Source of the DNA: Candidatus Krumholzibacteriia bacterium
Lineage (GTDB): Bacteria; Krumholzibacteriota; Krumholzibacteriia; JAJRXK01
DNA length: 64,000 nucleotides
Reading direction: 5' to 3'
Assembly (NCBI GenBank): GCA_041484665.1
Contig: JBGPIA010000001.1
Coordinates: 256,001-320,000 of the forward strand
Shown piece after piece: positions 1-34,083 of the stretch. A program made the position numbers and the translations under genes. Numbering within the stretch: position 1 is the first letter of the stretch; the number at the start of each line of letters is the position of its first letter. The notes under the pieces are model-generated. The model was not told the DNA's origin. It ran no database searches and saw only the letters and a program-made list of their open reading frames with translations.

Positions 1-3000
1 CATGCCGCCGCGGCCGCATAGTGGTCGAGGGCACGCCGGAAGTCGTTCAAGTGGGCGGCCGCCTCGCCGGCATAGAAGTGGAAGCGGGGCGCCTCGGGAT
101 CGGTGGGCCAGCGCGCGAGCAGGGTCTGGTAAAGCTCCAGGGCCTTCTCCCAGTGCGGACCTGCGGCCCCGTCGCGGGCCTGATGATGGTGATAGAGTGC
201 CACGGACTTGTACGATTCGAGGGCGTAGCGCCGCCCCGCCTGGCGCAGCGAGTCGGCCGCGTTGGCCGTGAACCATGGGCTGCCCTCCACGAAGCGAGGC
301 GCGGTCGCCAGGCGCGCGGCCCGGGCCTGCTCCGGCTTGTTCGAGCGCTCGTAGGTGTCGACCAGCCGCTGCGCCACGTCCAGCGCCTGCGCCTCGTTCG
401 GATAGCGCGCCAGCCACAGCTCATCGACTTTGGCCGCATCGCCGTAGAGGCTGAACTTGCGCAGCAGGGTGCCCATGCCCTGCAGGATGCGCGCTTCGTA
501 GGGGCGAGGACCGACGCCCTTGAAGTAGTCGGCAAACGGCTGTGCCCCGCCCGCGCGGCAGAGGGCGTGGATCAGGTAGTCCTGCGCCTCGGCCCGCAAG
601 TCGGTGCTGGTGCGCACCGCAGCGCCGGACTCGTAGAGGTCGAACAGGCGGCGGAACGCGTCGGCCGAATCGAGGAAGCGGTCCTGGTTGAAGTGGGCCC
701 ACCCCATCTTGTAGAGGGCGATCGCCGTGAGCTCGTTGTCCGTGCCCGCGGCGGCCCGCGCGTAGAGCGGCACGCACGCTTCGTAGTCCTTCTGGTCGAA
801 GCGGTTGTCACCCATGCGCAGCCAGGCCTCCTGGCAGAACTCCGACTGCGGATGGGTCGATACCAGCCGCTCGAGCACACCCTGGGCCTCTTCGCTGCCG
901 GCGTCGGAGAGGATCATGCCGATGTTGAACAGGACGGCGTCCTGATGGGGGAAGCCCGGGTCCTCGGCGAGGATCCGCCGGTACAGGCGCAACGCGGGCT
1001 CGTAGTCCACGAACGGTGCCATCGCGCGCGCGTCCAGGCTGCCCTGCGCCTGGGCGGCGCTGAGGAACTGCGCCATTTTGCCATTGAAGTCCTCTTTGGC
1101 GGACAGCATGAGCAGATCGGCCAGGCGGAAGCGCACCTCGCCGCGTGCGGGTGATCCTGGATAGCTCGTGAGGAATGCGTCCAGCTGGGCGATCGCCTCC
1201 TGCCGCGCGGCGGCGAGCTCGGCGCGCACGGTCGGATCGTCGTGGTCGCGCCCGCGGCCGACGGCGAGCTCGTGGGCGCTCACGCCGAGTCCGTAGTCGA
1301 TTCCCTCGCGTTCGCCGGCCAGCGCGTCGAGGGCGCGCTGCACCGCCGCACTGGCCACCGCGGTGCGCAGCTGCGCTGTCGCCGATCGCGCCGAGTCGGC
1401 CGCGGCCTGGCGAACGGCTAGCCCGGCCCGTAGCGCCCGCAACTCTGCGCTGTCGAAGCCCGCCGTGCGCGTCGAGTCGATCCCGGAGTGCAGCCGGTTC
1501 GCCCAGGCAATCCGGCGGCGCGCCTGCTCGGCGAGCCCGCGGGTTCCCAAGGTCACCCGTGGCTCCCAGACCTCGGCGTATGACCGCTGCACGATGCGCG
1601 GGGCGCGCACTGCAAACGTGTCGAGGAAGGCGGCCACCTGCAGCGAGAGCGCCTCCTCCCGCTGCAGGAGTGCCTCGGGGCTGGGCACGCCCTCCGGCAG
1701 CGGGTCCGGCCGCTGGCGGTTCGGCCCATCGACGTAGAAGTGGCGAAGGAAGAGCAGATGGTCCAGCTCCAGCTGCTGGTGCTGCACCAACGCCCGCGTG
1801 CGCACCGCGGCGCTGCGCAGGAACTCGCTCTTGACGCCGGCCAGCTGGCCAGCGATGCCGTCGACGACGGCCAACAGCGAATCCAGCCGCTGACTCGTGC
1901 TCACGAGGGCGCGGGTGGTGGAGCCCAGCGACTGCAGCCCGCGGTCGAGGTATGCGCGGCGGCGCGCCAGCCGGGCACGCTCCTCGTCCACCGCGCGACG
2001 GGCGCGCTCCAGCTCGGACGCCGCCTGCTCCTCGCGCCGTAGCGACTGCTGGACGGCGTCCCATTCCTGCGCGGTCGGCGCCGGCGCGTCGGGCATCCGC
2101 TGGTCGGTCGTCTGCCACAGCGACGCGCTGGCAGGCGCGCCGGCGAACGCGCTCTCCTCCAGCGGCGCGCGTAGGTCCAGCGACGCCTCGACCAGCGCCG
2201 CTGCTTCCCGGTCAAGCGGCGCCGTCTCCAGGACCAGCGCGCAGGACGCCATCGACTCCGTCGACCAGTGGTCCCACAGCAGCGGGGCGGCCGCGGGATC
2301 CAACAGGGACGTGAGCGTGTCATGCTGGGCGTCCCAGCCCTTCGCCAGGGCGCGATTGAGCTCGTGGGCGTCCTGCCAGTCCTCGGCCTCCAGCGCCAGC
2401 GCCGCCAGCTCCCGTTGGGCGTCGCGGCGGCGGCGCGGGCTTGGGTCGTCCTGGGCGATCGACGCCAGCAGCGCGCGGGCGTGCTGCGCCTCGCCGGAGG
2501 CGCCGGCCTCCAACAGGGTGAGGGCCAGCATCAGCCGCGCGTCGGCCGCGTAGCGGCTGGCCTTTGGAACGGCCTCTAGCTGCGCGATGGCGTCCTGGCC
2601 GCGGCGCAGCGCGAGCGAGGCGAGCCGCAGGTGGGCTGCGCCGACGAGATCCAGATCGAGAGGGGTCTTGGGCTCCGCCGCCACGAGCTCCTGGAGCGTG
2701 CGCTCCCAGTCCGCTCTGGCGTCCTGGGCGCGCGCCGGCGGCGGCGCCGGCGACACCGCAAGTGGCGCCGCTGCGGACACGGAGTCGGGCGCCGCGGCGC
2801 TCTGCGCGGGGAGCCCTTCGGCAAGCGCCTGCACGTAGAGCCGCAGCACGGGCGAGGCGGCGTCGGCAGCGCCGCGCTGCAGCGCTGCCTTGGCCTGCTC
2901 TGTCTCCCCCGCTCGAACGAGCAGGGCCGCGACCAGCACGTCGGCGGCGGGCAGACGCGCTGGCGCCGCGTTGGCGGCGGCAGCGAGCGTTGCGCTGTCG

Positions 3001-3479
3001 GCCGCTGCGGCGTCCGTCGTGGCCGTCAGGAACCGGTACCGCAGCCACAGATCCCAGGGCGAGCCGGTTGGGTGTGCCGCTTTAGCACGCGCAAGCGCCA
3101 GGAAGCGCTGCGGCTCCCCCAGCCGCAGGTAGGCTTCCGCGAGCAGGAACGCCGCGCGGTCCGCGCCGGCGAAGCCGGGCGTCGAGGGAGCGATCTGCTC
3201 CAGTTGCGCCGCAGCCTCGCGCAGGTCGCCCATGCTCCAGGCGTAGGCCGCTTGACGCAAGCGCAGCTCGGCGAGCGGCGCGCCGGCCAGCTCGAAGGCA
3301 GGCTGCGGCTGCGCCGCGCGCTGCTGCTGCGAGCCGGGTGCGCTTGCGTGATCCGCGCTCGGCGTGGTCTGCCCGCCCTTGACCGGGAGGGCCGGGTCTG
3401 ACGCCGCACGCGCCCGCGCCGGCGCGATGGACAGCGCCAGCACGGCCGGTGCGAGCAGTACCCCAAGGATGCGTTGCAT
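1..3479 (-). CDS. Large secreted tetratricopeptide-repeat protein (>1159 aa, runs off window start)
   Basis: Not in the ORF track because no stop falls inside the window. ATG at 3479 gives MQRILGVLLAPAVLALSIAPARA (signal peptide). The same frame gives TPR-like segments such as DAVLFNIGMIL, ALYKMGWAHFNQDRF and DLRAEAQDYL near the left end. Confidence 0.85.
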   Translation of the reverse strand, partial: MQRILGVLLAPAVLALSIAPARARAASDPALPVKGGQTTPSADHASAPGSQQQRAAQPQPAFELAGAPLAELRLRQAAYAWSMGDLREAAAQLEQIAPSTPGFAGADRAAFLLAEAYLRLGEPQRFLALARAKAAHPTGSPWDLWLRYRFLTATTDAAAADSATLAAAANAAPARLPAADVLVAALLVRAGETEQAKAALQRGAADAASPVLRLYVQALAEGLPAQSAAAPDSVSAAAPLAVSPAPPPARAQDARADWERTLQELVAAEPKTPLDLDLVGAAHLRLASLALRRGQDAIAQLEAVPKASRYAADARLMLALTLLEAGASGEAQHARALLASIAQDDPSPRRRRDAQRELAALALEAEDWQDAHELNRALAKGWDAQHDTLTSLLDPAAAPLLWDHWSTESMASCALVLETAPLDREAAALVEASLDLRAPLEESAFAGAPASASLWQTTDQRMPDAPAPTAQEWDAVQQSLRREEQAASELERARRAVDEERARLARRRAYLDRGLQSLGSTTRALVSTSQRLDSLLAVVDGIAGQLAGVKSEFLRSAAVRTRALVQHQQLELDHLLFLRHFYVDGPNRQRPDPLPEGVPSPEALLQREEALSLQVAAFLDTFAVRAPRIVQRSYAEVWEPRVTLGTRGLAEQARRRIAWANRLHSGIDSTRTAGFDSAELRALRAGLAVRQAAADSARSATAQLRTAVASAAVQRALDALAGEREGIDYGLGVSAHELAVGRGRDHDDPTVRAELAAARQEAIAQLDAFLTSYPGSPARGEVRFRLADLLMLSAKEDFNGKMAQFLSAAQAQGSLDARAMAPFVDYEPALRLYRRILAEDPGFPHQDAVLFNIGMILSDAGSEEAQGVLERLVSTHPQSEFCQEAWLRMGDNRFDQKDYEACVPLYARAAAGTDNELTAIALYKMGWAHFNQDRFLDSADAFRRLFDLYESGAAVRTSTDLRAEAQDYLIHALCRAGGAQPFADYFKGVGPRPYEARILQGMGTLLRKFSLYGDAAKVDELWLARYPNEAQALDVAQRLVDTYERSNKPEQARAARLATAPRFVEGSPWFTANAADSLRQAGRRYALESYKSVALYHHHQARDGAAGPHWEKALELYQTLLARWPTDPEAPRFHFYAGEAAAHLNDFRRALDHYAAAAA

Positions 3480-3531
3480 GGGTCTTCGCGGGGCGGCGCG
3501 CCGCAGTGGCTTCTCCACGGGCACGGCGGGG

Positions 3532-4476
3532 CTACTTCACCCAGAGGCTCGAACGGATGTCGGGGCTCGGCTGCGCCGGACTCGCCGCCGCGAGGTCGAG
3601 CTCCAGGAACGTGAGCCGGTCGCGGCTCGGTTCGAGGCTGAGGCTGTGCGCGGTACGGGCCGGCCAGCCCTCTCCAGACAGCGCCACCTCCAGCACGTGC
3701 TCCCGGGGCTCGATGAAGGCGTGGTAGATCTGAGCGATGCCACCCTTGCGCAGCGCGGCCCACTGGTCGGCGGACATGGGCACGCGTACGGTCTGCCCCT
3801 CCTCGGTGAGCAGCAGCTCGGCGGGCGTGGCGCCCGCCGGGCATCCCCGCACCAGCACGACCAGAGCCGTCTGCTGGCGGCCGACGAAGTCCGCTTCCAG
3901 CCGGGCGAGCCGAGCGCTCTCATCGGCCAGCAGCTTCTCCATGAGATCCAGCTGTGCCTCCAGGCCTCCCAGCTCGGTCACGCTCTGCAACACCTCCCGG
4001 CGCTGCAGGCTCTCCTGCTCGGCGCGCACGGTGTCGCGTGCGGCATTCAGCTGCTGCAGCATTTCGCGGTACATGGCAAAGCGTGGATCGAGCAAGCCAG
4101 CCTCCCCCTCGAGGTCGTCGCGGCGCACCAGCCGCAGCTGGTCCAGCTGCGCGCGGAGGAACTCGCGGTTCTCGCGCAGGAAGCGCAGCGTCACCAGCTT
4201 GGGCTTCTTGGCCTGCACCCGCTCCACCTCGAGCTGCTCGGGAGGGAGATCCTGCAGCTCCACGGGCTCTCCCAACACCGGCGTCGCCGGCAGGGGCGCG
4301 AGCGGCTGCGCGGGCGATGGCGCCTGCGCCGGCTTAGGCGGCTGCTCTGGGGCGGATGCCTGCGCCGCCGGCGGTGCCTGCGCCGTCGAGGGGTCCTGCG
4401 CCCGCGCCGGTGCTCCACTTTGCACCAGAACGGCGGCTGCCAGCAGGGCCAGCGGGCCCGCCACCGCACACGCCAT
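3532..4476 (-). CDS. Secreted coiled-coil hypothetical protein with C-terminal beta domain
   Basis: Within ORF 3532..4710. Likely start ATG 4476 just after the upstream stop. Signal peptide, Pro-rich linker, coiled coil, then ALRKGGIAQIYHAFIEPREHVLEV. Confidence 0.7.
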   Translation of the reverse strand: MACAVAGPLALLAAAVLVQSGAPARAQDPSTAQAPPAAQASAPEQPPKPAQAPSPAQPLAPLPATPVLGEPVELQDLPPEQLEVERVQAKKPKLVTLRFLRENREFLRAQLDQLRLVRRDDLEGEAGLLDPRFAMYREMLQQLNAARDTVRAEQESLQRREVLQSVTELGGLEAQLDLMEKLLADESARLARLEADFVGRQQTALVVLVRGCPAGATPAELLLTEEGQTVRVPMSADQWAALRKGGIAQIYHAFIEPREHVLEVALSGEGWPARTAHSLSLEPSRDRLTFLELDLAAASPAQPSPDIRSSLWVK

Positions 4477-4478
4477 GC

Positions 4479-5102
4479 TCAGCCTTGCCACGTGCGCACG
4501 ACCTTTCCAGTGCCGGCATCCACCACCACGAAGAGCGTCGGGGCTCCCTGCGACGTATAGACCAGGGCCCAGGTGGTGCGATCGGGGTCGTCGGGCCGGA
4601 AGGCACCGCGCAGCAGCAGCATGGTGGCGAGCTGGCCGCCGTGCTCCGCCCGGTACCGCGCACCCTCCTTCTCCTCCGCAGCGGCGAGCGCCTGCGCGCT
4701 GTCGACCCATCCGGCAGGTAGCGGCGGCGCTTGCAGGTCGAAGCCCAGATCGGCGGCCGCGGCGATGCGGCCGTCGCGCACCGAGTAGCCGCGCGCAGCG
4801 TTGCGCGTGCGTGAGAAGAACAGGTAGCCCCAGCGTGGCGCGGCGCCGCCTTCGCCCACGGGCTCATCGTTCTCCAGGTAGATCAGGCGCGCGTCGGCGG
4901 CCCAGTTCTGCGCCGCGTCGACTGCCAGCGCCAGCCCTTCGTGGGCAGTGAAGGGGACCGGATCGCGGGCGTGGCCAAAGGCCGGCGCCAGGGCCAAGGC
5001 CAGAGCGAACGCAGCGACGGCCGCGGCGCGCGGGCGCACGCGGTGGTGCGGCGCCCGTGCAGGCCAAGGCTTTGGCGCGCGCGGGAGTCGGCGAGCGGGC
5101 AT
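4479..5102 (-). CDS. Secreted hypothetical protein
   Basis: GAGGAGGAG SD before ATG 5102. Signal peptide ending in AFG/HA. C-terminal W.LVY...FVVVDAGTGKVV resembles a PepSY-like motif. Confidence 0.75.
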   Translation of the reverse strand: MPARRLPRAPKPWPARAPHHRVRPRAAAVAAFALALALAPAFGHARDPVPFTAHEGLALAVDAAQNWAADARLIYLENDEPVGEGGAAPRWGYLFFSRTRNAARGYSVRDGRIAAAADLGFDLQAPPLPAGWVDSAQALAAAEEKEGARYRAEHGGQLATMLLLRGAFRPDDPDRTTWALVYTSQGAPTLFVVVDAGTGKVVRTWQG

Positions 5103-5113
5103 GGCGCTCCTCC

Positions 5114-6142
5114 TCAGAACAGCAGCGTGGTGCCGATGCTGAATTCGATGTTGTTGTCGGTGCGGCGCGAGCTCTCGCTGCCCATGGAGAACCGGTAGTT
5201 GCGCACTTCCCAACGCACGGCCACCGTCTTGGACACGTACATGGAGACGCCCGCGCCATAATTCGCCGACGCTTCGCTCTTGCCCTGCGCGATGGTCGAT
5301 CCGACGCCGCCGGTCAGGAAGGGCACCATCTGGCGTCCGGGCAGCAAGTGGAGATTGCCGTTGAGCTCGTAGTAGAGCATGTGGAACTCCTCGGCCTCGA
5401 GCGTGAGGCCGAAGAGCGTCTCCACGATCTCCGCGGGGCGGTGGATGTGGGTCCAGGAGATGCCACCCTCCACCTCGAGGAACTCCAGCACGTAGTAGCC
5501 CAAGCGTCCGCCCAGGGCCAGCGAATTGGACTTGCGGTCGAAGGCGTAGCCGCCAGCGTACCCCGTCAGCGCGAAACTCCCGATGCGGGAGAAGAGCCGG
5601 GGGTTGGGCCGGAACTCCAGGTCCGACATGTCGTCGAACTCGTGGCACAGGGACGCATGCACCCAGCCCGTTTGCACGTCGGACAGGCGCACGTTGTACC
5701 AGTCGGCCTTCTTGGCGATCACCGTGAACTCGGCGCCCTTGGGGTAGACCCCGACGATGGCGAACGTGTTCCCTGGACCGCTGCGCACGACGTTGTCGTC
5801 GCCACGGTCGAGACGGACCCTCTTCTCTTTGAGGACGTGGGCGCCATTGAGATTGTCCACCGCGGGCGGCGCAAGCGTGCCCGCCGCCATCGGTACGGGT
5901 GGCGGCAGCGCGGAGGGCGCGGCAGCGTCGGCGGCGACGGGCGCCGCCACGGCGGCTGCGCCGGCCGCTTCGGGCGCGGTTGACGTGGCAGGGTCGATGG
6001 CGGCGGCGGCTGGCGGCGGCGGAGCGTGGCGATCCGCCGGCTCCTGTGCCTGCGCCGCAGCGGGGCCCGGCAACAGAGCGCTCCAGAGTAGCGCTGCCGC
6101 CAACGCGGGCGGCGTCCTGCACAGTGTGCGTGCTTGCATCAT
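5114..6142 (-). CDS. SH3b domain + outer-membrane beta-barrel protein
   Basis: Signal peptide; NVVRSGPG...WYNVRL..QTGWV is an SH3b signature; amphipathic beta strands end in a terminal Phe (IGTTLLF). Confidence 0.85.
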   Translation of the reverse strand: MMQARTLCRTPPALAAALLWSALLPGPAAAQAQEPADRHAPPPPAAAAIDPATSTAPEAAGAAAVAAPVAADAAAPSALPPPVPMAAGTLAPPAVDNLNGAHVLKEKRVRLDRGDDNVVRSGPGNTFAIVGVYPKGAEFTVIAKKADWYNVRLSDVQTGWVHASLCHEFDDMSDLEFRPNPRLFSRIGSFALTGYAGGYAFDRKSNSLALGGRLGYYVLEFLEVEGGISWTHIHRPAEIVETLFGLTLEAEEFHMLYYELNGNLHLLPGRQMVPFLTGGVGSTIAQGKSEASANYGAGVSMYVSKTVAVRWEVRNYRFSMGSESSRRTDNNIEFSIGTTLLF

Positions 6143-6164
6143 CGGATCTCTCCCGTTGAGCCCA

Positions 6165-6872
6165 TCAAAGGCCGGCGGCCGTCCAGGACAGCAGCAAGTG
6201 CGCTCCCCAGCTTCCGAAGGTCTCTCTCTGCTCGGTGATGGCGGCCCCGGCGCGGTGTGCCGTGTCCAGGGCGAAGTACGTTCGCTCGAGGTGCAAGCCC
6301 AGGGCCAGACGCGATGTCACGGCCCGGCGCAGCAGCAGCCCCGCACCGGCCGTCCAGGTGTCGACCGGCGCGTAGTCGACAACGATCTCCGGGCCGCCGC
6401 CCAGCGGAACGTACGACGCGCGGTCGGGGTCGTAACCCAGATGGAGCAGCCCGCCGCTGGCCAAGGCGCAGACGTCGACCGAGAGCAGCGAGAGCGCCCG
6501 CGCACCCGCCACCAGCTCGAACGCAGTCAGGTGCGCCTTCACAGCGCGCGTCTCGCCCGGGATCCCGCTGGCCTGCGTCGTCTGCATACGGCTGGCACGC
6601 ACGCCCGCCAGCAGGCGCCCGCGCTCGACGAAGACCTGCGCCCCCAGGCGGGCGGTGGTGGCGGTATCCCAGCGGTAGTCGGACAGGTGCGGGTCGAGCT
6701 GGGCCGCGCCCACCAGCGCGGAGACGGACACCCGCAGCGCCGACGCGTCACCGGCGGCGGCTACGGCGGGCAGCGCGACCAAGAGCGCCATGGCGTACGT
6801 CGCCGCCCGCGCCCACCGGCGCAACGCGGACGCGTCGTGTCCGCGCAAACCCAGTGCTGATCCTCGTGCCAC
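6165..6872 (-). CDS. Outer-membrane beta-barrel-like protein
   Basis: GTG 6872 with GGAGG SD; signal peptide; alternating beta strands with an aromatic near the C-terminus (HLLLSW). Confidence 0.65.
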   Translation of the reverse strand: MARGSALGLRGHDASALRRWARAATYAMALLVALPAVAAAGDASALRVSVSALVGAAQLDPHLSDYRWDTATTARLGAQVFVERGRLLAGVRASRMQTTQASGIPGETRAVKAHLTAFELVAGARALSLLSVDVCALASGGLLHLGYDPDRASYVPLGGGPEIVVDYAPVDTWTAGAGLLLRRAVTSRLALGLHLERTYFALDTAHRAGAAITEQRETFGSWGAHLLLSWTAAGL

Positions 6873-6894
6873 GGCCTCCCCCCCGCTGGATGCG

Positions 6895-7503
6895 CTACTG
6901 CGCGGCCGGTAGGATCTCCACGCCTGTCGAGAGCACGTCCAGATCGGTGGACAAGACCGGATCGAGCAGCAGCGTATCGCGTCCGGAGGGCAGCTCGACC
7001 TTGTCGCCGTGGGCCAGGTAGAGCAGCAGGAAGAACGTCCCATTGCTGCCCACCGGTCCATACCCCGGCAGCGCCCGGCCTCGCGGGTCGAACGCGGTGA
7101 AGGAAAGATCGGCTTGCTGCATGAGGTGGTCGAACCCGACCACGGCCTTGGCGTTACGCCCCGCGGTCACCGAGCTCTGCAGGACCCGGTCGACGGCGCG
7201 TGCCACGTCGAGGTGCTTGTCCTTGGTGTGTGGATCCAGGAAGACGTCGCCCACGGCGAGCGAATCGCTGTAGCGCAGCTCGGCGACCAGGAATCCGGAG
7301 AAGATCTCGCGGTAGGTCGCCTTGGCCTGCACCGTGAACTGCGGCGCGCCGCCGGCGGCGAAGGGATCGCCCATGGTCGGCGCGGCCGCCTGCAGCTCGA
7401 GCAGCGTCCAACGCTTCTCGACAGGCGGCTCGCCCAGGCAGCCGGCGTAGGTGAAGGCGGCGCCGAGGATGATCACCAGGGTTCGCACGGATGAAGCACG
7501 CAT
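6895..7503 (-). CDS. Hypothetical lipoprotein
   Basis: GAGGA SD, ATG 7503; lipobox-like YAGC after a hydrophobic stretch. Confidence 0.7.
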   Translation of the reverse strand: MRASSVRTLVIILGAAFTYAGCLGEPPVEKRWTLLELQAAAPTMGDPFAAGGAPQFTVQAKATYREIFSGFLVAELRYSDSLAVGDVFLDPHTKDKHLDVARAVDRVLQSSVTAGRNAKAVVGFDHLMQQADLSFTAFDPRGRALPGYGPVGSNGTFFLLLYLAHGDKVELPSGRDTLLLDPVLSTDLDVLSTGVEILPAAQ

Positions 7504-7597: not shown

Positions 7598-9244
7598 CTA
7601 CTTGACGAGCACCATCTTGTCGGTGAGCTCCTCGTTGCCCACGCTCAGCCGGTAGTGGTAGACGCCCGAGGACACACTGCGGCCGCCGCTGTCGCGACCG
7701 TCCCAGACGACGTCGTGCGGCCCGGGAGCGGCGTCACCAGCAGCCAGCGTTGTCACCAGACGCCCCCGGTTGTCGTAGATGCGGAGGCTGAAGGAGCGAG
7801 CCGGACCGGCGGGGACGACGAACGCAATCGTCGTCGACGGGTTGAACGGATTGGGGTGGTTACCCAGCAGCGCCAGGCGCGTAGGGAGCGCGTCGCCGCC
7901 GCCGGCCAGAGTGAACCGCACCTCGGACTGGTCGCGCAGCGCGCCGCTATAGTGCGAGGTGGCCGCGACCCGCAGAGTGACCTCGCCGCCTCGGGCACCG
8001 CCCAGGGCCCGTGCAAGGTCCAGGCGCACGGCCTGCGGGCCCGACGCCAGCGCAGGCACGTCCTGGCGGCCCAGCGTGCGTCCGCTGGCGGGGTCGATGG
8101 CCTCGATCGTGACGTCGGCGTGGTCGGTGAGCGTGAAGCGAACCGTCACGCCGTCGTCGTAGACCACGTGGAGATCCTGCAGCGCGACACCCAGATCCAT
8201 CAGGCGCAGCCCGCTCTGATCGCTCCACTCCTCCACCAGCACGCCGTATCCCTGACCGGCGCGGACGACGCTGCCGTCGCGGTGGTCATGGATGTTGACG
8301 AACGGAATGTGGAAGCTGCGCGGGCGCATGATGCCGGCGCCGAGCTCGGCCACCGGGTAGAGCTGTGGCGTGAGCTTCTGGACCACGCCGGCGTTGGGGG
8401 CTGCAGCGTAGAGGTTCCCGTAGTGGTCGCTCTCCAGCGAGGTGACGATGCCGATATCGTGCGGCAGGGAGCCGACCCATTCCAGGGCGCTGCCCGTGTC
8501 GCGCAGATGGACGATGCGTCCGTTGTGGGCGTCGGCGACGTAGACGTCGGAGGTGCAGCGCCCATCCTGCCGGCCGACGGTGATCGCCATCGGCCCGGCG
8601 AAGAAGCCCGTGCCGCTACCCAGGTCGCCGATCTGCGAAACCAGCTCGGCGCGATCGTCGGCCAGGCGGTAGCCCAGCACGCGATTGCGCCCAGAGTCGG
8701 CCACGTAGAGGCGGTCGTCACCGGGATCCAGCGGCGTCCCGTTGTCGGAGACCGCCACGTCGAACGGGGAGCTGAGCCCGGCGATGGCGAAGCGCGGCGA
8801 TAGCGTCAGCTGGTCATACTCGCCCGCGGTGGTGAAGACCAGCACGCGGTCATTGCCCGAATCCGCCACGAACAGGCGGCCGTCCGCGTCCACAGCCATG
8901 CCGTGGGGCGCGCGGAGCTCTCCGAATGCGGACCCCTTGCCGTCGAATCCCTGGAGGTCCTTGCCGACCTCACCGTAGAGCAGGCGGCCCCACGACGGAT
9001 CCGACACGACCTGGAAGTAGCGTGCCTCCAGGTAGGGGAAGCGGTCGTACACGTCAACGTTGCCGATCACGACCGTACGGTATGGATCGCCGAACAAACG
9101 GCGTCCGACCAGCTCCTGCGCGACCGCTCGCGTGACGATTTGCACGCCCGCCTGGGGGAGGATCGGGGTCGGCACGAACGTCTCGGCCAGCGCCGGGCCG
9201 CTCCCGAGCAGGAGGATGAAGGTGAACAGGCTTGTCCGGGTCAT
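7598..9244 (-). CDS. NHL-repeat (beta-propeller) protein with C-terminal FlgD-Ig / T9SS-CTD-like domain
   Basis: NHL repeats (PHGMAVD..GRLFVADSGNDRV; LYVADSGRNRV); tail NHPNPFNPSTTI...VWDGRD..G.SV.SGVY.YRL...KMVLVK. Confidence 0.85.
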   Translation of the reverse strand: MTRTSLFTFILLLGSGPALAETFVPTPILPQAGVQIVTRAVAQELVGRRLFGDPYRTVVIGNVDVYDRFPYLEARYFQVVSDPSWGRLLYGEVGKDLQGFDGKGSAFGELRAPHGMAVDADGRLFVADSGNDRVLVFTTAGEYDQLTLSPRFAIAGLSSPFDVAVSDNGTPLDPGDDRLYVADSGRNRVLGYRLADDRAELVSQIGDLGSGTGFFAGPMAITVGRQDGRCTSDVYVADAHNGRIVHLRDTGSALEWVGSLPHDIGIVTSLESDHYGNLYAAAPNAGVVQKLTPQLYPVAELGAGIMRPRSFHIPFVNIHDHRDGSVVRAGQGYGVLVEEWSDQSGLRLMDLGVALQDLHVVYDDGVTVRFTLTDHADVTIEAIDPASGRTLGRQDVPALASGPQAVRLDLARALGGARGGEVTLRVAATSHYSGALRDQSEVRFTLAGGGDALPTRLALLGNHPNPFNPSTTIAFVVPAGPARSFSLRIYDNRGRLVTTLAAGDAAPGPHDVVWDGRDSGGRSVSSGVYHYRLSVGNEELTDKMVLVK

Positions 9245-9270
9245 GGCAGGGCTCCTTTGGTGCTCCCGGG

Positions 9271-10419
9271 TCAGAACGCCAGGGAGAGTCCGCTCTCGAA
9301 GATGTTTGCCGAGAAGTTGTTGGTGTTGAAGTACCGCTCGTAGTTCAGGCTCAGCCTGACCCCCCTCAGGAAGTCCAATCGTCCACCCATGCCCCCCAGG
9401 TCCCAGTCCAGCCGCCCGCCGAACAGGTGCGCGTTGAAGGCCCCCAACCGGTAGTCGCCAGTGCGCAGACCATCCACGCCGCCGGGGTCGGTATACTCCG
9501 TCCGGTAGAACGCCGCCGCCCCTTGCGTGTAGTAGCGGTAGCGGTAGCGCACGACCAGGTCGTGGGTGATGTACTGGCTCAGGCGGGCGCCGACGGTATG
9601 CGAGCTCACGCCCCAGTCGTCGGTGTAGTACGTGTACGCCAGCTTGAGGCTCGACTGGTTCTTCAGGTACTGGTTGAGCTTGACGTAATAGTCATTGCGC
9701 CGGCGGTGGGTGGGGTGCACCTCGGGCAGATCGCTGCCGGCCACGTAGACGTTCCGATAGGGGTTGTGCTGAAGCCCGTCCACCAGGTTCAGCTCGGCGC
9801 CCGCCTGCATCACCGTCGAGGCGGTCAGTACCTGGCTGGCCACCAGGCTCCAGTGCCAGTTGTCCTTTTGATCGGGCACGGTATGCGTGTCGGCGTCCTC
9901 GGCCGGATCGATCTTGTCCCAGCCATAGCTCGTCCCCGCCGACAGATTGAGGTTCTGCCCGAAGAAGTCGTGATCCACCTCGGCGCGCAGTTGCTGGGCG
10001 AAGTAGTCGGCCTCCGACGAGACGTAATAGCCGCCCTTCAGGCGCCGCCACGTCATATCTCCCTGCAGCTCGTTGCGTGTCTTGGTGAAATCGGAGTACG
10101 CATCAGCCCCGCTACGGATCGGGCGGCTGGCCGTGGTGATGGCGTCGACGGCCTCCTGGCTGCCCGCCGGGGCCTTGATGCCCGGTACCATCACGACCTG
10201 GTGGGTCCACTGCAGGTCGAGCTTCGGCCCCCGCTCGAGCTCCAGCAGGTAGTCTGTGTAGCTGGAGTACACGTGCACATCGTCGGAGTCGGCGAAGTAG
10301 TTGAACGAGTACGTCGCGGTCTGGTCGGTGACCCCCGCTCCGGCAGCCGGCGCCAGCATCAGGCACGCCGCCGCCGTGGCCATCCATGGCCGCGTAGACT
10401 TGTCTGCGCTCAATTGCAC
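9271..10419 (-). CDS. DUF3570 family outer-membrane beta-barrel protein
   Basis: VDAITTAS, SSEADY, NPYRNV, PEVHP..R.R, YYTDDWGVSSHT, RYRYYTQ motifs; terminal Phe; start overlaps the DUF4266 stop (GTG 10419 or 10425). Confidence 0.85.
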   Translation of the reverse strand: MQLSADKSTRPWMATAAACLMLAPAAGAGVTDQTATYSFNYFADSDDVHVYSSYTDYLLELERGPKLDLQWTHQVVMVPGIKAPAGSQEAVDAITTASRPIRSGADAYSDFTKTRNELQGDMTWRRLKGGYYVSSEADYFAQQLRAEVDHDFFGQNLNLSAGTSYGWDKIDPAEDADTHTVPDQKDNWHWSLVASQVLTASTVMQAGAELNLVDGLQHNPYRNVYVAGSDLPEVHPTHRRRNDYYVKLNQYLKNQSSLKLAYTYYTDDWGVSSHTVGARLSQYITHDLVVRYRYRYYTQGAAAFYRTEYTDPGGVDGLRTGDYRLGAFNAHLFGGRLDWDLGGMGGRLDFLRGVRLSLNYERYFNTNNFSANIFESGLSLAF

Positions 10420-10670
10420 GCGCACCCTCCGCCGGCGACGCCGATTCCGCCCGTGGAGCCTTCGCGCGCCTCGCGCCAGTGCAGCTCGCGGCGCTCCTCG
10501 CGGGCATCGCGGTCGAAGGCCATGATCGGGTCGGCGAGGAACTCACGCTGGTAGCCCTTGACCGTCGCGCATCCGGACACCGTCAGCAGCAGCAGCAGTG
10601 CCGACGCCGCCCGCACCAAGCGGCTGCGTGGCCCCACGCGGACGGCCCGAACTTGCGTCCCTGGTCTCAT
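10410..10670 (-). CDS. DUF4266 family small lipoprotein
   Basis: SGC lipobox, VKGYQREFLADPIM, and C-terminal AREGSTGG.G..GGGCACN; sits between TlpA and DUF3570. Confidence 0.88.
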   Translation of the reverse strand: MRPGTQVRAVRVGPRSRLVRAASALLLLLTVSGCATVKGYQREFLADPIMAFDRDAREERRELHWREAREGSTGGIGVAGGGCACN

Positions 10671-11287
10671 TGCGCACCTCCCGTTGCGCCGGCCATGGCC
10701 GCGGCGGGAGCGGACAGCAGTCCCTCCACGATGCGCCGCAGCGAAGCCAGCACCTCGTCGCCACCGCCACCGGAGACGCTCACGACCTTGCCACCGCGGT
10801 CCAGCACGTAGGTGCAGGGCAGGTGCGGCAGGTCGAGCTGGGCGGCCAGCCCCTGCGCCCCATCGTGGTAGAGCGGCAGCTGCAGGTGCTGTGCTTGAGC
10901 GAAGTGCTTCGCACGCGACCGGTCCCGGTCGATGGAGATGGCGACCACGCGCGCTCCGCGGCCGGCCAGGTCGGCGTGCAGGCGCGCCAGGTAGGCGAGC
11001 TCCTTGCGGCACGGCGCGCACCAGCTGGCCCAGAAGCTCACCACGACCACCTGCCCACCCAGCGGGCCCAGGCGGGCCGCCCCGCCGTCGAGCGTCGCGA
11101 AACTGTGGCGCTCCAACGCCGCGCGTAGGTCGGCCGCCGCGAGCGCCGGCGCGGCGGGCGCGGCGGATGCCGACGCGCGCTGCGGCGATGCTCCGGCGGC
11201 GGCCAGCAGCGCGCCGATCGCCGCGAGTGCCAGCACCCGGCAACGCCGCCCGCCGGGCGCAGGAAGAGAATTCACGCCCACGCTCAT
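10667..11287 (-). CDS. TlpA/ResA family thiol-disulfide reductase
   Basis: VVVSFWASWCAPCRKE; LP.TYVLDR.G; N-terminal signal or anchor. Confidence 0.9.
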   Translation of the reverse strand: MSVGVNSLPAPGGRRCRVLALAAIGALLAAAGASPQRASASAAPAAPALAAADLRAALERHSFATLDGGAARLGPLGGQVVVVSFWASWCAPCRKELAYLARLHADLAGRGARVVAISIDRDRSRAKHFAQAQHLQLPLYHDGAQGLAAQLDLPHLPCTYVLDRGGKVVSVSGGGGDEVLASLRRIVEGLLSAPAAAMAGATGGAQ

Positions 11288-11300
11288 GCCCTCCTGCGGC

Positions 11301-13340
11301 TCACTTGTACTGGGCGCCCAGAAGCACCCAGAGGTTGAACAGCTCGACCTCGGCCGGAGTGAGCGCGTACTGCCCCTGCGGGTGCACCGCCTTCCCCTGC
11401 TGGGTGCCCAGGCCCTTCAGGTAGTCGATGAGCAGCGACCGCCGCGGGAAGGCGGGCTCCACCACGTTGTGGTCCATCCGACGTGTCTCGCCCGAGAGGT
11501 TGATGTAGCCGCGGGGGAAGATCCGGTTCTCACGCATGGTCGTATCGGGCACGGCGGTGAGATCCAGGTTCCCCGGCGCGGGGATCGTGTCGGTCACGGC
11601 CACGTGGGTCGTGTCGGTTCCGTTGACGATCGTCGAATCGCGCTGAACGTAGGTCGGGTAGTGGCACGTCGCACACTTGCTCTGTACGATCGGGCCGATG
11701 TTCGTTTCGTAGTTGATGATCTGGAACTGCGACGAATCGAGGTCCAGATCGGTCGGCGGCATGGTTGCGGCGATCGGGTTGAGGTTGGTGGGCACGGGGC
11801 CTCCGGCAGCGCGGTCCTCGTGGCAGCCCACGCACTTGTTGAACTCCTCGCCGGGTCGCAAGTAGATCCAGGTGCGCTTGACGACGATGCCGCGCCCGTA
11901 CTCATCCAGCGTCGCAAACCCGATGGGCGTGTCGGCCGGCACCTTGATGCGAAACGATCCGTCGGCGTACACCGGCGCGAAACCGATCAGGGCGCGCTTC
12001 TCGAACTCGTTGGCCGAGAAGTCGTTCATGTCGCCAGGGCGCGTGGCCCGGGCGGTGTAGACCGCGATGCGGTCGATGGGCTGCGTGCCCTTGACCGGCC
12101 GCTCCTGCCCGTCGTTGGTGCCGCGATTGAAAACGTCCTGTGCCAGGAAGACTCCGTAGTTCTTCGTGGGATCCACCGTGCTTTGGATCACCGGCGGCTT
12201 CGGGTGCGCCGCGAGCACCTGGGCGTCGAACTCGTTGGCGGCGGGATCGTTGTAGAGGAACGTGAGATCCTTGATGGCAATGGTGGCCGGATCGGCGGTA
12301 GTGCCGGCGCCGGTCTGCTCCAGCGTGAAGGTGTAGAGGCCGTAATCCGCGTCTTCTTCCGTGGCGGCCGGCAGCGTGTACGAGGCCACGAACTTGTTGC
12401 CGCCCAGTGGGAACGGGTACTTGAAGGCGCCGTAGACCCACGGCGCGCCATCGGTGTTGATGTTCGCGTTGAGGGCGTCCCAGTGCAGGCTCGTGCTTCC
12501 GGTCGCCGGGTCGGCCGGCCCCTGCTCGGGCTTCAGCACCGCCAGCGGGCCGGCGTCCCCCTCCACCATCGTCGACTCGATGGCGACGATGCGGCCATCC
12601 GGCGTCGGCTGGGCGTGGAAGAAGTTGCGCTCGTGGGGTCCGAAATGATGGAAGGTCCCGCTCCCGTCCGGATTGGTGGCGAACAGCGGGAAGCGGTTCA
12701 TCGTCCCGAAGTGCTCCCAGCGCGTATACATGACGCGCCCGTCGGGCAAGAGCGTAGGATCGAAGTCGTTGCTCTGGTTGAAGCTGATGCGCTCCAGGTT
12801 CGACCCGTCGGCGTTGCAGCGATAGAGGTGCTCCGCGAGCGAGTGGTTGTACTCATCCATCTCGCTGTCGCGGGAGCTCGTGAAGAGGATCTGGCCGTCG
12901 GGCAGGTATAGGGGGTCGAAGTCGTGCCCGCCGCCCCTGGTGATCTGGCGCAACCCGCTCCCGTCGGCGTTGATCTCCCAGATGTTCTTCCAGGTCGCGC
13001 CGGGCGGCCGCAGCGCGAACAGGATCGTCTTGCCATCGAACGAGACACACGGGTCCGAGACGCTCGCCCCGACGAAGTTCGTCACCGCTGTGACGATGCC
13101 GTCGGGCGAGATCGGCGACAGCTTGTACAGGTTGCTCTCGGCCCAGCTGCGGTTGAGGGTCTCCGCGTCCTGGGACTTGATGAAGACGAGAGCCGCGGTG
13201 GTCTGCTCGGCCACGAAGAGATCGTCCGGCGCGCTCTTCTTGCACCCAGCCAGCGCGGCCGCGCCAGCAGCCGCGGCCAGGATGGCCGTGCGCAGGGGCC
13301 GCGAAGAGACGAGCGCCCAGAGTAGGTGTTCGCGTCGCAT
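11301..13340 (-). CDS. Hydrazine synthase alpha-subunit-like lipoprotein (PD40 propeller + HzsA middle domain + two CXXCH)
   Basis: LAGC lipobox; DPCVSFDG, DFDPLYLPDG and YTRWEH repeats; DGSFRIKVPADTPI...LRPGE...CVGCHE; second motif CATCH. Confidence 0.85.
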   Translation of the reverse strand: MRREHLLWALVSSRPLRTAILAAAAGAAALAGCKKSAPDDLFVAEQTTAALVFIKSQDAETLNRSWAESNLYKLSPISPDGIVTAVTNFVGASVSDPCVSFDGKTILFALRPPGATWKNIWEINADGSGLRQITRGGGHDFDPLYLPDGQILFTSSRDSEMDEYNHSLAEHLYRCNADGSNLERISFNQSNDFDPTLLPDGRVMYTRWEHFGTMNRFPLFATNPDGSGTFHHFGPHERNFFHAQPTPDGRIVAIESTMVEGDAGPLAVLKPEQGPADPATGSTSLHWDALNANINTDGAPWVYGAFKYPFPLGGNKFVASYTLPAATEEDADYGLYTFTLEQTGAGTTADPATIAIKDLTFLYNDPAANEFDAQVLAAHPKPPVIQSTVDPTKNYGVFLAQDVFNRGTNDGQERPVKGTQPIDRIAVYTARATRPGDMNDFSANEFEKRALIGFAPVYADGSFRIKVPADTPIGFATLDEYGRGIVVKRTWIYLRPGEEFNKCVGCHEDRAAGGPVPTNLNPIAATMPPTDLDLDSSQFQIINYETNIGPIVQSKCATCHYPTYVQRDSTIVNGTDTTHVAVTDTIPAPGNLDLTAVPDTTMRENRIFPRGYINLSGETRRMDHNVVEPAFPRRSLLIDYLKGLGTQQGKAVHPQGQYALTPAEVELFNLWVLLGAQYK

Positions 13341-13383
13341 CATGATCTCCTTTAAGGCTCCTGCCGCCCGCGCGCCGTGGCGC

Positions 13384-14109
13384 CTAGCGCCCCAGCGTGC
13401 GGTAGAAGGAGAGACCGATCGTCGCCTCGCCGTACTGGTAGGCGATCGTGTCCCCCGAGTTGCGTTCTCCGCCGATTACGGTGGTCTCCCGCAGCTCCAC
13501 GCGCAGCGCGACGTCGTTGCGAACGTAGAGCTCCAGCCCGCCACCGAACGCCAATGCGTTCTTGGTCACCGGGTCGGCGTTGAAGGCCCTCCCGGGAAAA
13601 ACGAGCATCATCCCGTAGCCGAGGCTGCCGTAGGGTTGCACGCGCCACGGCAGCGGATAGCGCAGCAGGACGTTGAAGGTGTTGAATAGGGCGTGCACGG
13701 AGGCGCCGGGGTTGTGCCCGATCGCCGCCTCGTATCCCAGCCACCGGTTGGGGTTGTAGGCCAGGCGGAAGGCGAACAGGCGCTCGTTGCCGAGCTTGCC
13801 GAAGCCGGGGCTGAAGGCGAGGCGGTGCAGGAACGGCCGCTTGCCGGGCGCGAGCGCGAACGGCGCGCTGGCCACCTCGGGCACCAGCGGCGTGAGCGCG
13901 CGTGCGGCGCCCGGGACCGGTGCACCCCGCGGCGGCGCGCTCACGGCGGTCGCATCGCCCTGCGCGGCTCGCGCAAAGGGCAGCGCCGTCAGCCACGCCG
14001 CAGCGCACACGATTGCGCTCGCCATCCATGGCGCCCGCGGCCGCGCCCATGCGCCGTCGCCGCTGCGGGCGGCTCTGCGCTGAGTGCGGTTGCGGCTGTG
14101 GCCGTTCAT
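13384..14109 (-). CDS. Outer-membrane beta-barrel protein
   Basis: Signal peptide; QPYGSLGYG, FGGGLELY, ALRVELRE strands; IGLSFY near the C-terminus; start overlaps the upstream stop (ATGA). Confidence 0.75.
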   Translation of the reverse strand: MNGHSRNRTQRRAARSGDGAWARPRAPWMASAIVCAAAWLTALPFARAAQGDATAVSAPPRGAPVPGAARALTPLVPEVASAPFALAPGKRPFLHRLAFSPGFGKLGNERLFAFRLAYNPNRWLGYEAAIGHNPGASVHALFNTFNVLLRYPLPWRVQPYGSLGYGMMLVFPGRAFNADPVTKNALAFGGGLELYVRNDVALRVELRETTVIGGERNSGDTIAYQYGEATIGLSFYRTLGR

Positions 14110-14528
14110 TGCAGCACCCCGGCCTGGATCCAGGCGCGGATCGCTTGATAGCCCGGGTCGTCCGTGCTGGCGAACGGCTTGAAGCTGTGGGGCACGCCGC
14201 CGGCGGCCACCGCCAGCGGCTTGGTCAGCAAGGTGCTCGCGTCGCGGTCGTACGCGTTGACCTGCAAGCTCGCCTGCTCGAAGTCGAATGGGTCGCTCTT
14301 GGCAGCGACCGGAGAGAGGGCGAACGTCCCGCGGATGCCCCCGCCGTGGCAGTCCCCCCCGGCGTCGCACCCCTGCGTGCTGAGCACCGGCGCGACCGTC
14401 TGCTGGTACTGCGCGAAGCTCAACACCAGGCGCTGCCCGCCTCCGGGCGGGAGCGGCGGAGCATCCGGCGAGGAGCACGCTGTCAGCAGCAGCGGCACGA
14501 CCCATAGGATTCCAGCTCTATTGGTCAT
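14106..14528 (-). CDS. Lipoprotein with atypical cytochrome c-like CX5CH motif
   Basis: GGAG SD; LTAC lipobox; VAPVLSTQGCDAGGDCHGG...SLLTKP-like..H...YQAIRAWIQAG (planctomycete-cytochrome-like layout). Confidence 0.7.
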   Translation of the reverse strand: MTNRAGILWVVPLLLTACSSPDAPPLPPGGGQRLVLSFAQYQQTVAPVLSTQGCDAGGDCHGGGIRGTFALSPVAAKSDPFDFEQASLQVNAYDRDASTLLTKPLAVAAGGVPHSFKPFASTDDPGYQAIRAWIQAGVLQ

Positions 14529-14782
14529 CTCCACACGGCGCGCCGGCCGCCGGCGTCGTGCAGGATGCACGCGCGCGGTGGCGTTGCGCTCTGCCCGCGC
14601 CTGCAGGATTCTTCCCTTAGGGGGTCGTCCTTGCCGGGCGACGGCTCGCCCCGGACCACTCTGGGATTGTGATCTCGGGTGTGCCTCGGGGGAGCAATGT
14701 TCGAACCAACGCCGGGGCGCGTGCGGCAGGGATTACGGCACCCCCGCGGCGCCGCGGCGGCGCGTCGCGCTACCGCAGGCAA

Positions 14783-16114
14783 CTAGAAGGGGCGCACGTG
14801 GAAGAGCGACCGTCCCTCCGCCGTCATGTGGAAGTCTCTGACCAGCGAGCGCTTCACCCAGACCGTATCGGGAGCGCTGACGGACGATGCAGGCTGCACG
14901 AGGACGACCTGGAGCTCCGGGCGCTGCTGTGCCAGAGCGGCGGCCGCGCGTGGGCCGAGCACCAGCAGGCCCGTATCCCACGCGTCGGCCTCCAGCGCCG
15001 TTGGCGCCACGACCGTGGCCGACAACAACCCGTCGACCGGCCAGCCCGTGCGCGGATCGAGCACGTGGCCGAAGCGTCTGCCGTCCTGCATGACAAACTG
15101 CTCGTAGTTGCCCGATGTGGCGATCGACCGGCCGCGCAGCTGCACCGTCGCGAAAAAGGGCACCCGGCCGCGCGGGTCGCGCACCCCCACCGTCCAGCTG
15201 TCGCGCTGCGGGGGTTGCCCCAGCGGCCGCATGTTGCCCGACAGATCCACCAGCGCGTCGCGCACGCCTGCGGCCGACAGCTGCGCGACCGCACGGTCCA
15301 CCGCATAGCCCTTGGCGATACCGCCCAGGTCGACCTGCACGCCGTTGGATGCGAAGCGCACCGTCGCCGACGCGCGCTCCACGCTCACCTGGCGGTAGCC
15401 CACCCGGGGCAGGAGCGCCTCGATTTCCGCTTGGGGGGGCACGTGGGGGATCCCTCCCAGGAAACCCCACAGCCGCACCAGCGGCTCGATGGTGACGTCG
15501 TAGGCCCCGCCCGTAACGGCCGCCACACGCAGCGCCTCGTCGAGCACCAGGGCAACCTCGGGATCGGTCACGACGGCCCGTTGCGCAGCCTCCCGGTTCA
15601 GCCGCGCGACCGCGCTGGTCTGAGTCCAGTTGCTCATCAGCGAGTCGACGTGCTGGAAGGCGCGCAGCGCCGCCTGCGCTGCTGGGGTTGTGGCCGCGGA
15701 GTCGGCCGTGACGACGGTGACCTGTCCGACCGTTCCCATCGTCCTCGCGCGCCAGGCCACCGAGCGCGGGGCTGGCGCCGCCGTCGGCGCACCGGCCGGA
15801 GTGCCCGGCTGCGGACGGGGCGACGGGGCAGGCGTTGCGGGTGGCGTCGGGGTTGGCGTCAGCGGCGGCGTGCCGACAGCCGACGGGCAGGCGTGCACGG
15901 GCCAGGGCACGCAGCCCAGCATCACGAGCAGCGCCGCTCCGACGGCGGCCCGCTGCGCGCTTAGCAGGTGAAGTGCGCGCTGTCCGCTGCGGGCGGGCGG
16001 CGGCCGGTCTGCACGCAGCAGACGGCGCGCGCGTGGCGCGCCGCTGGGCGAGCTCGCGGGCGCAGGCGCGTGCGGACCGCCGGGCTGCGGCATGCCGGTG
16101 CGCGGCTTTGGCAT
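14783..16114 (-). CDS. apbE: FAD:protein FMN transferase (ApbE family)
   Basis: TMGT, GAYDVT..PL..LWGF, DLGGIAKGYAVD, ATSGNYE, HVLDPRTG, ADAWDT motifs. Confidence 0.93.
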   Translation of the reverse strand: MPKPRTGMPQPGGPHAPAPASSPSGAPRARRLLRADRPPPARSGQRALHLLSAQRAAVGAALLVMLGCVPWPVHACPSAVGTPPLTPTPTPPATPAPSPRPQPGTPAGAPTAAPAPRSVAWRARTMGTVGQVTVVTADSAATTPAAQAALRAFQHVDSLMSNWTQTSAVARLNREAAQRAVVTDPEVALVLDEALRVAAVTGGAYDVTIEPLVRLWGFLGGIPHVPPQAEIEALLPRVGYRQVSVERASATVRFASNGVQVDLGGIAKGYAVDRAVAQLSAAGVRDALVDLSGNMRPLGQPPQRDSWTVGVRDPRGRVPFFATVQLRGRSIATSGNYEQFVMQDGRRFGHVLDPRTGWPVDGLLSATVVAPTALEADAWDTGLLVLGPRAAAALAQQRPELQVVLVQPASSVSAPDTVWVKRSLVRDFHMTAEGRSLFHVRPF

Positions 16115-34082: not shown

Positions 34083-34083
34083 C

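Follow-up and report, generated by a model that had tools for sequence, protein, structure and literature searches.

The closest described relatives of the system considered here are two gene clusters, both of unsolved function. One is the Agl/Glt 'core complex', consisting of gltC, gltD, gltE, gltG, aglR, aglQ and aglS plus one extra gene, for which no function is known (Luciano et al. 2011, PMC3169522); in the model of the Agl-Glt machine, GltC is bound on the underside of the barrels GltABH, which keep the lipoproteins GltK and CglB at the surface, and GltF forms the bridge from GltC to GltD and to the TonB-like domain of GltG (PMC11761067). The other is the ApbE-DUF3570-thioredoxin-DUF4266 cluster, described with uncertain function (Meheust et al. 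2021, PMC8238504), in which the DUF3570 protein of C. luteolum carries flavin mononucleotide (FMN) on two [S/T]GA[S/T] motifs through the action of its ApbE; the DUF3570-DUF4266-TlpA trio is also mentioned in passing by Haft (2023, 10.1101/2023.06.07.544157). Relatives of both stand side by side in a Candidatus Krumholzibacteriia bacterium (genome G000, the host), at the left end of a 64,000-nucleotide stretch of contig C1 (C1:256001-320000; the window, whose positions are used below unless another contig is named). Twenty co-oriented genes may there build a single envelope machine, a thiol-to-flavin-to-haem electron route at the outer membrane carried on an Agl/Glt-like scaffold, a reading that is favoured with somewhat less than even confidence.

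Fourteen of these genes lie in the window as open reading frames (ORFs), all on the minus strand, and profile searches gave the expected family matches in the order listed by an initial annotation made from the letters alone. The leftmost encodes a giant tetratricopeptide repeat (TPR) protein of 1695 amino acids (aa) with TPR matches (1..3524); its gene runs about 1.56 kb beyond the left edge, to C1:254437. Six further same-strand genes follow, for 20 in total: a GltE-like TPR lipoprotein directly beyond the giant TPR (C1:253400-254338), a GltF-like small gene (C1:252877-253392), ExbB (C1:252126-252824), ExbD-1 (C1:251691-252116), ExbD-2 (C1:251275-251688) and a TonB-like gene with an AgmX/PglI C-terminal domain (C1:250229-251278; NF033768, 86 bits against a cut-off of 40). 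The next gene, past C1:250229, is on the opposite strand. Further TPR, ExbB/ExbD and TonB-like genes were exactly what the initial annotation had predicted for this side.

In order and sizes this part of the cluster resembles CJA_3319-3312 of Cellvibrio and Sde_2961-2954 of Saccharophagus, if the giant TPR is counted as GltC plus GltD. The Cellvibrio genes run GltC (660 aa), GltD (964 aa), GltE (244 aa), a skipped locus tag, AglR (231 aa), AglQ (181 aa), AglS (173 aa) and GltG (323 aa), and the core-complex rows give 570-660 aa for GltC and about 955 aa for GltD (PMC3169522, Table S3 for Cellvibrio). The common plan is thus one or more large TPR proteins, a TPR lipoprotein, a small gene, ExbB, two ExbD and a TonB-like protein with an AgmX/PglI C-terminus; the present cluster differs in having a single 1695-aa TPR for two expected genes, in being joined to a redox module, and in that its motor is absent or replaced in some lineages. 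Because the lengths agree, the giant TPR may be a fusion of GltC and GltD; its close homologs are mostly 1500-1750 aa. It was matched by none of the Glt-named models in the profile search, and every full-length Glt model scores far under its cut-off on the cluster proteins (19-26 bits for GltE against a cut-off of 225, and GltG likewise). Searches with the giant TPR and with the 314-aa exported protein next to it (3532..4476; probable coiled coil plus beta-rich domain, present in 71/71 loci) reached no named Glt protein, and the labels 'GltF-like' and 'AglRQS-type' come from position and general motifs. The 314-aa protein, whose distant relatives of about 190 aa are all unnamed or hypothetical, is a possible counterpart of the core complex's extra gene as it occurs in gammaproteobacteria. 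An Eisenbacteria record, P0284 (445 aa), appears by eye to be a fusion of the 314-aa product with the neighboring 207-aa product, which suggests that the two act together. The TonB-like protein (349 aa) has a transmembrane segment near its N-terminus and no N-terminal cytoplasmic FHA region, and neither GltI, GltJ nor the FHA domains of GltG were found among the 20 genes, to which that search was confined. The likeness to Agl/Glt clusters proposed in the initial annotation therefore holds for gene order, sizes and the AgmX/PglI domain, and fails for the cytoplasmic platform (GltI, GltJ, GltG FHA) of the Myxococcus gliding machine, which has no counterpart in the cluster. The scaffold is likely a relative of the core of that machine.

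The same gene order recurs in 80 related loci, an arrangement far beyond chance. A scan of the genome collection with the single DUF3570 protein gave no match; an alignment of the SH3-barrel protein succeeded, yielding 84 loci, the best 80 of which form the set used here, so that the loci are similarity-selected kin, some possibly from the same genomes as the ten relatives below. Where their record titles name a group, it is in most cases Eisenbacteria or Krumholzibacteriota and in some Latescibacterota or Gemmatimonadota. Eleven cluster genes are present in every locus with room for them (57/57 to 75/75), among the counts being 68/68 for the NHL-FlgD gene and 75/75 for the 207-aa gene; the TPR lipoprotein was found in 41/43, the GltF-like gene in 42/43, and apbE in 41/50 (42/53 in a separate upstream count). 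DUF4266, often missed by tblastn (43/63), was recovered in 65 loci by hidden Markov model. Nine of ten same-class relatives, chosen by DUF3570 matches, keep the cluster order as far as their contigs extend. The 202-aa lipoprotein was not found in G011, G016, G021 or G031. In G011 (L278:3-2837) there is also no motor before the TonB-like gene, and apbE is at the far end on the other strand; G031 holds the CX5CH gene through the 207-aa gene, with apbE likewise not found in the fetched stretch. In a hand count of 151 genomes of the host phylum, with divergent DUF3570 defined as at most 160 bits and an ambiguous G126 fragment left out, the divergent DUF3570 occurs in 33, the 314-aa gene in 32 and both in 31, that is, in 31/34 marker-positive genomes, which makes the distribution patchy yet nearly all-or-none. 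G112 has two copies of each (C102 and C86; C272 and C66). A close HzsA-like ortholog is present in 24/81 genomes of the phylum of G156, and plasmid searches found nothing comparable to the cluster. Gene-neighborhood analysis, put forward in the initial annotation as a check, thus showed strong synteny.

A wider scan, made with a pattern of the canonical DUF4266 end, produced 120 metagenome loci, most of them short and with flanks of at most 10 kb, and an SH3-barrel-like gene was seen in 14. In L149, L159, L167, L171 and L182 the order is HzsA-like, barrel, barrel, TlpA, DUF4266, DUF3570. On L176, a myxobacterium-like contig, GltE-like (100 bits), GltF-like and GltG-like (178 bits) genes are co-oriented with a CX4CH lipoprotein, SH3-barrel, DUF4266 and DUF3570, and HzsA-like genes converge on this block, so the joining of redox and Glt genes recurs in a different order. 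Beside an HzsA-like gene, L176 also encodes (3174-6122, plus strand) a protein of 983 aa that combines three haem-type motifs with a PD40 repeat and a canonical DALTGAS and is possibly a flavinylated cytochrome. A divergent trio, consisting of a one-haem protein, a LamG-domain two-haem lipoprotein and a probable twin-arginine translocation (Tat)-exported protein of no family, adjoins the HzsA-like block at L149:3-4795, L159:15037-20022 and L171:15339-20024. In a Vibrio locus, a gene matching DUF3570 adjoins one that by eye resembles dsbD, and there is no haem or Glt-like neighbor.

In the redox half, the DUF3570 protein belongs to a divergent subtype (9271..10425; PF12094, 140 bits). Its AlphaFold2 model has 16 long strands (pLDDT, for predicted local distance difference test, 90) and a C-terminal Phe, and displays the even strand number, one-sided long loops and terminal aromatic residue of an outer-membrane barrel; its closest structural matches, CdiB (Z 18.8, root-mean-square deviation (rmsd) 3.6, 270 aligned) and BcsC (Z 18.1, rmsd 4.3, 310 aligned), are generic 16-strand channels. 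In the model, the motif DAITTAS (10126-10146) sits on the long loop that follows strand 3, at the end of the barrel where the remaining long loops are also found. Since the long loops of outer-membrane barrels usually face outside, the motif loop is predicted to face outward. All 65 near-complete orthologs have D-x-[IV]-[ST]-x-A-[ST] (TTAS in 46, TSAS in 10, SGAS in 6, TAAS in 3), with the D, the A and the acceptor S invariant. The ApbE consensus is D-x-x-[S/T]-G-A-[S/T], and a Gly-to-Ala change halves labelling of a model substrate (PMC12052999); because the present motif deviates from that consensus, flavinylation of the host DUF3570 is judged likely but not sure.

As in the published flavinylation clusters, apbE (14783..16114, the first gene, with lipobox MLGC; PF02424, 277 bits), DUF3570, DUF4266 and a thioredoxin-like gene are clustered, all over Pfam cut-offs, DUF4266 ends in a CXC, and dsbD is elsewhere in the host genome, as in 316 published clusters (PMC8238504). 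The differences are two [S/T]GA[S/T] motifs there and one non-canonical motif here, 280-440 Pfam bits for canonical full-length DUF3570 against 104-159 in the present subtype, and the embedding of the module here with haem lipoproteins, three small barrels and a Glt-like core. SGAS is found only in loci without a local apbE (6/11, versus 0/42 with apbE), a pattern given little weight because it comes from one or two lineages only. The loci without an upstream apbE are L066, L071, L073, L074, L088, L089, L091, L092, L098, L103 and L130, and apbE was found elsewhere in the genome in 5/5 tested genomes without a local copy. The host also has a second, canonical TlpA-DUF3570-ApbE module with the motif DVITGAS (C10:39685-42483, minus strand) and a third ApbE on C9.

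The DUF4266 lipoprotein (10410..10670; PF14086, 63 bits; C-terminal GGGCACN) is predicted to lie in the DUF3570 lumen, from the periplasmic end towards the long-loop end. Modeling of this complex, part of what the initial annotation had suggested, gave the pair a score of 0.64, with 0.01 for the best of three controls; the mark for such scores is reached by 116/157 solved complexes and 2/215 mismatches, rates that apply only roughly to the present alignments. The runs agree in at least 69% of contacts, with partner pLDDT at least 63. In the model, DUF4266 contacts alternate along the barrel strands, as lumen-facing residues would, with residues 14-19 touching the short-turn end and residues 28-32 contacting positions further towards the long-loop end. 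No solved relative was found by sequence for either chain, and the accessible parts of PMC8238504 do not describe DUF3570 as a plugged barrel. The C-A-C of DUF4266 is invariant in 61 orthologs, the CXXC of the adjoining TlpA-type thioredoxin (10667..11287; AhpC-TSA/TlpA match; C90-x-x-C93, WCAPC) is present in 63/63, and DsbD_TM scores 69 bits on host contig C4, outside the cluster.

Two lipoproteins carry haem-type motifs. The larger (11301..13343; HZS_alpha plus PD40) resembles hydrazine synthase alpha (HzsA; 5C2V chain A, E 1e-20), with which it shares a propeller, a middle domain and two CXXCH motifs (11820-11834 and 11661-11675) in common order, both present in 57/57 orthologs. In HzsA, Tyr591, four residues after His587, is the proximal ligand (PMC12607021), and the non-anammox HzsA homologs described in PMC12758564 have a co-localized beta/gamma partner. 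The cluster protein differs in being a lipoprotein, Tyr is at His+4 in 0/59 HzsA-like orthologs, and a profile search of the 20 genes found no beta/gamma partner; with both the catalytic Tyr and the partner missing, assignment as a hydrazine synthase was rejected. The smaller (140 aa, 14106..14528; CX5CH at 14346-14369 plus a second invariant His) has CX3-5CH in 58/58 orthologs, with both Cys and both His invariant in 59, and is likely a one-haem cytochrome. The cytochromes FoxE and PccH are among the top weak rows of its fold search, and profile comparison did not link it to the haem domain of the HzsA-like protein (hhalign 1.4%). A System I cytochrome c maturation operon lies 14 kb from the cluster (29846-36177, plus strand), comprising ccmE, ccmF, two genes without Ccm matches, an ABC subunit, ccmB and a ccmC-like gene, followed by a menaquinone biosynthesis gene. 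Multihaem ORFs with up to 42, 31, 23 and 19 CXXCH are found elsewhere (C2:704653-732523; C11:110098-115064; C10:101871-104057), and the host seems well equipped for other electron-transfer routes.

In the proposed mechanism, the barrel would receive FMN from ApbE, on Ser100 of DAITTAS, during its passage through the periplasm in unfolded form, leaving the flavin on an outer loop. DsbD, encoded elsewhere, would reduce TlpA, and TlpA the C-A-C tail of DUF4266, whose dithiol would reduce the FMN, the flavin converting the two-electron step to one-electron steps. The one-haem and two-haem lipoproteins, with the NHL-FlgD propeller, would receive the electrons at the surface, and these surface proteins would then act, most likely as reductants, on a substrate outside the cell. 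The three small barrels may form a GltABH-like platform, and the TPR, GltF-like and TonB-like proteins would connect it to a proton motor in the inner membrane, by which the surface parts would be placed, exposed or gated; on the Agl-Glt analogy, the haem lipoproteins would be held and positioned by the small barrels and TPR scaffold and would be supplied by the plugged flavin barrel. MtrAB-type porin-cytochrome conduits consist of a 26-strand barrel and a multihaem wire. The cluster would share with them a barrel filled by a redox protein and surface haem partners, and would differ in its 16 strands and in the dithiol lipoprotein and covalent flavin that replace the multihaem wire; 6R2Q chain B is a general barrel match only (Z 15). 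A bolder version, considered rather doubtful, is that a multihaem-free conduit, leading from a barrel-plugging dithiol lipoprotein to a surface covalent flavin and on to haem lipoproteins, and gated or positioned by a proton-driven Glt-type scaffold with interchangeable ExbBD, represents a new class of outer-membrane conduit and the ancestral job of the core from which Myxococcus gliding arose.

The motor was surveyed in 40 related loci that had a GltF-like match in that run. The conserved ExbB-ExbD-ExbD type is present in 33, and in seven the GltF-like gene leads directly to the TonB-like gene. The transmembrane Asp, a residue whose role is known from ExbD and TolR, is lacking from the first ExbD of the conserved type (36/36; Asn in 34) and present in the second (35/36); both ExbD proteins of the host triple have it. 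Host ExbB is 27-32% identical to the relatives' cluster ExbB, and host ExbB, ExbD-1 and ExbD-2 are 66, 56 and 53% identical to a set on host contig C17. In a 32-row ExbB tree, 16 cluster ExbBs form a clade (100/100) that excludes the host ExbB, which is sister to the C17 copy (98/99); the clade is defined from the relatives' rows. Because host ExbB falls outside that clade, it is unlikely to be the ancestral motor of the cluster. Misassembly is also unlikely, since a contig from a run not flagged as source (X5, 2580-3910 of L002) spans the GltF-like/ExbB junction with zero differences and the ExbD-2 stop overlaps the start of the TonB-like gene, the latter junction being bridged by none of the contig pieces listed (32 of 1500). 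Read most simply, a paralog of another ExbBD set has replaced the motor in place, and the sequence relationships point to the C17 cluster family as its source. The C17 cluster (C17:12913-23970, minus strand) encodes large Ig-like and barrel-like proteins (by eye), a 1056-aa TPR-like protein, ExbB and two ExbD; the family relatives G002 and G006 hold both motor types, at separate places. Any compatible ExbB/ExbD set seems able to serve the cluster.

Of the four barrels named in the initial annotation, DUF3570 and two others stand and one is weak. Barrel A (13384..14109; OMP_b-brl, E 1e-4; TIGR04565, E 4e-5) is, by profile comparison, a paralog of the SH3-barrel (hhalign 83%, E 9e-6), in which an SH3 domain (SH3_3, 39 bits) is fused to a TIGR04565-like barrel (56.5 bits, cut-off 60) with a C-terminal Phe (5114..6142). 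Probable barrel B (6165..6872) is kept in 74/74 loci; OMP_b-brl matches 1/10 orthologs (E 0.0098), and profile comparison linked it to no other barrel. The family-less 202-aa lipoprotein (6895..7503) is kept in 72/72 loci with room, and the 207-aa exported protein (4479..5102) has a weak PepSY likeness (E 0.003), with Atlas clusters unnamed. The NHL beta-propeller (7598..9244; NHL plus FlgD_ig), with a C-terminal FlgD-Ig like a type IX secretion system (T9SS) tail, is likely surface-exported, and SprA is encoded in the host genome. In a simple hydropathy scan (not SignalP), all 14 window proteins have an N-terminal hydrophobic stretch, in agreement with the export signals initially noted. The lipobox pattern of the scan was matched in ApbE, the CX5CH protein, the HzsA-like protein and DUF4266; the YAGC of the 202-aa lipoprotein falls outside that pattern, and its Cys is invariant in 10/10 aligned. 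Overlapping stop and start codons, also noted, occur at three junctions (-4, -4 and -16 bases), most others being gaps of 2-40 bases and two being wide (254 bases between apbE and the next gene, 94 after the NHL-FlgD gene). Cluster GC content is about 70%, as in the remaining window. Upstream of apbE are two co-oriented genes for exported FlgD-Ig-tailed proteins of about 1500 aa (16168-20622, lamin-tail plus MAM-like; 20827-25329, CARDB), which are not adjacent in relatives and are outside the cluster.

Several observations weigh against a single redox machine. The motor is absent from the seven loci noted above, and in the 5 of these 7 genomes that were searched the conserved ExbB was not found elsewhere (best 29-32% identity; genome completeness not given). 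The C-A-C tail of DUF4266 (residues 45-53) is absent from the confident contacts, so that its nearness to FMN is outside the model, and the predicted inside/outside orientation of DUF3570 is taken from the general barrel rule. Thr occupies the Gly position of the motif in 46/65 orthologs, a position where even Gly-to-Ala halves flavinylation (PMC12052999), and the CX5CH model (pLDDT 87) has as its best fold FoxE at only Z 4.4 (rmsd 3.3, 80 aligned). G031 has the redox half, but the 26 kb that follow it yielded no Glt half, and among the 120 unselected DUF4266 loci an HzsA-like gene is present in 9 and a GltG-like gene in 1, within the short flanks available. The trans-outer-membrane redox machine of the initial annotation gains support from the modeled barrel, the predicted plug and the conserved motif. 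Dependence on a dedicated motor of its own is too strong a reading, because the energizer is missing from 7/40 loci and from G011 and replaced in the host, and in G031 the redox half was found with no Glt half in the stretch covered. An alternative, for which G031 also speaks, is that a redox module and a Glt-like scaffold are co-regulated and serve one physiology while remaining physically separate, with no complex between them. Each half has been published alone, and L149, L159, L171 and L182 have the HzsA-barrel-TlpA-DUF4266-DUF3570 block with no Glt gene in the available flank; the halves are nevertheless joined here with gaps of 2-26 bases at most junctions, their markers occur together in 31/34 marker-positive genomes, they are joined in another order in L176, and the SH3-barrel accompanies both, all of which renders separation improbable.

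A predicted plugged 16-strand barrel beside ExbB, ExbD and a TonB-C domain could alternatively belong to a reductive, energized uptake system, in which a bound metal (Fe or Cu) would be reduced, or a surface substrate broken, by the flavin and haems, and the product would be imported as the TonB-like protein pulls on the DUF4266-plugged barrel. The iron transporter VIT1 is found in 25 DUF3570 clusters (PMC8238504), and an HzsA-like multihaem gene beside imelysin and a porin, with apbE and DUF4266 divergent (L216:230-5949, minus strand), hints at iron. However, the 20 genes include no inner-membrane transporter or binding protein, the TonB-like domain of GltG binds GltD and GltF rather than a barrel plug in Agl-Glt (PMC11761067), and DUF3570-DUF4266 modules mostly lack such a motor within the available flanks; uptake is considered rather unlikely, though the most probable of the alternatives. 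Lipoproteins face the periplasm by default. Together with the enzyme-like propeller and haem layout of the HzsA-like protein, this would suit a periplasm-facing redox enzyme, its haem lipoproteins on the inner leaflet and a small-molecule substrate entering via the barrel, so that no electrons leave the cell; placement of the DUF3570 motif loop on the long-loop side of the model, the missing catalytic Tyr (59/59) and the lack of a beta/gamma partner in the cluster make it quite improbable. The likeness to Agl-Glt, a proposal that the core may suffice for secretion (10.1101/2020.07.22.216333), and the 154 tblastn matches that a tailed protein gives in the host genome could instead point to a gliding motor, or to a secretion system for the many FlgD-Ig-tailed proteins of the lineage. 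Here the TonB-like protein has no cytoplasmic FHA region and the cluster no GltI/GltJ-type gene, motility driven by nothing more than the core is considered unlikely (PMC3169522), SprA is present in 4/4 tested genomes where the cluster DUF3570 was not found, and the conserved redox genes would be left unexplained; this role is very improbable.

In summary, the cluster is a new combination of two known modules, each already published, to which the host locus adds the replacement and loss of the motor and the motif statistics. No publication joining the redox and Glt halves was found in a search whose coverage mostly excluded subscription journals and did not extend to the large supplementary table of PMC8238504, which could list such neighborhoods. 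The stable union of the Agl/Glt core, known since 2011, with the DUF3570 cluster, known since 2021, supplies each with a testable partner. The barrel-and-plug model suggests that electrons may pass the outer membrane without a multihaem protein and names residues by which this can be tested. As the motor is lost or replaced while the TonB-like protein is kept, Glt-type scaffolds may be drivable by borrowed ExbBD motors.

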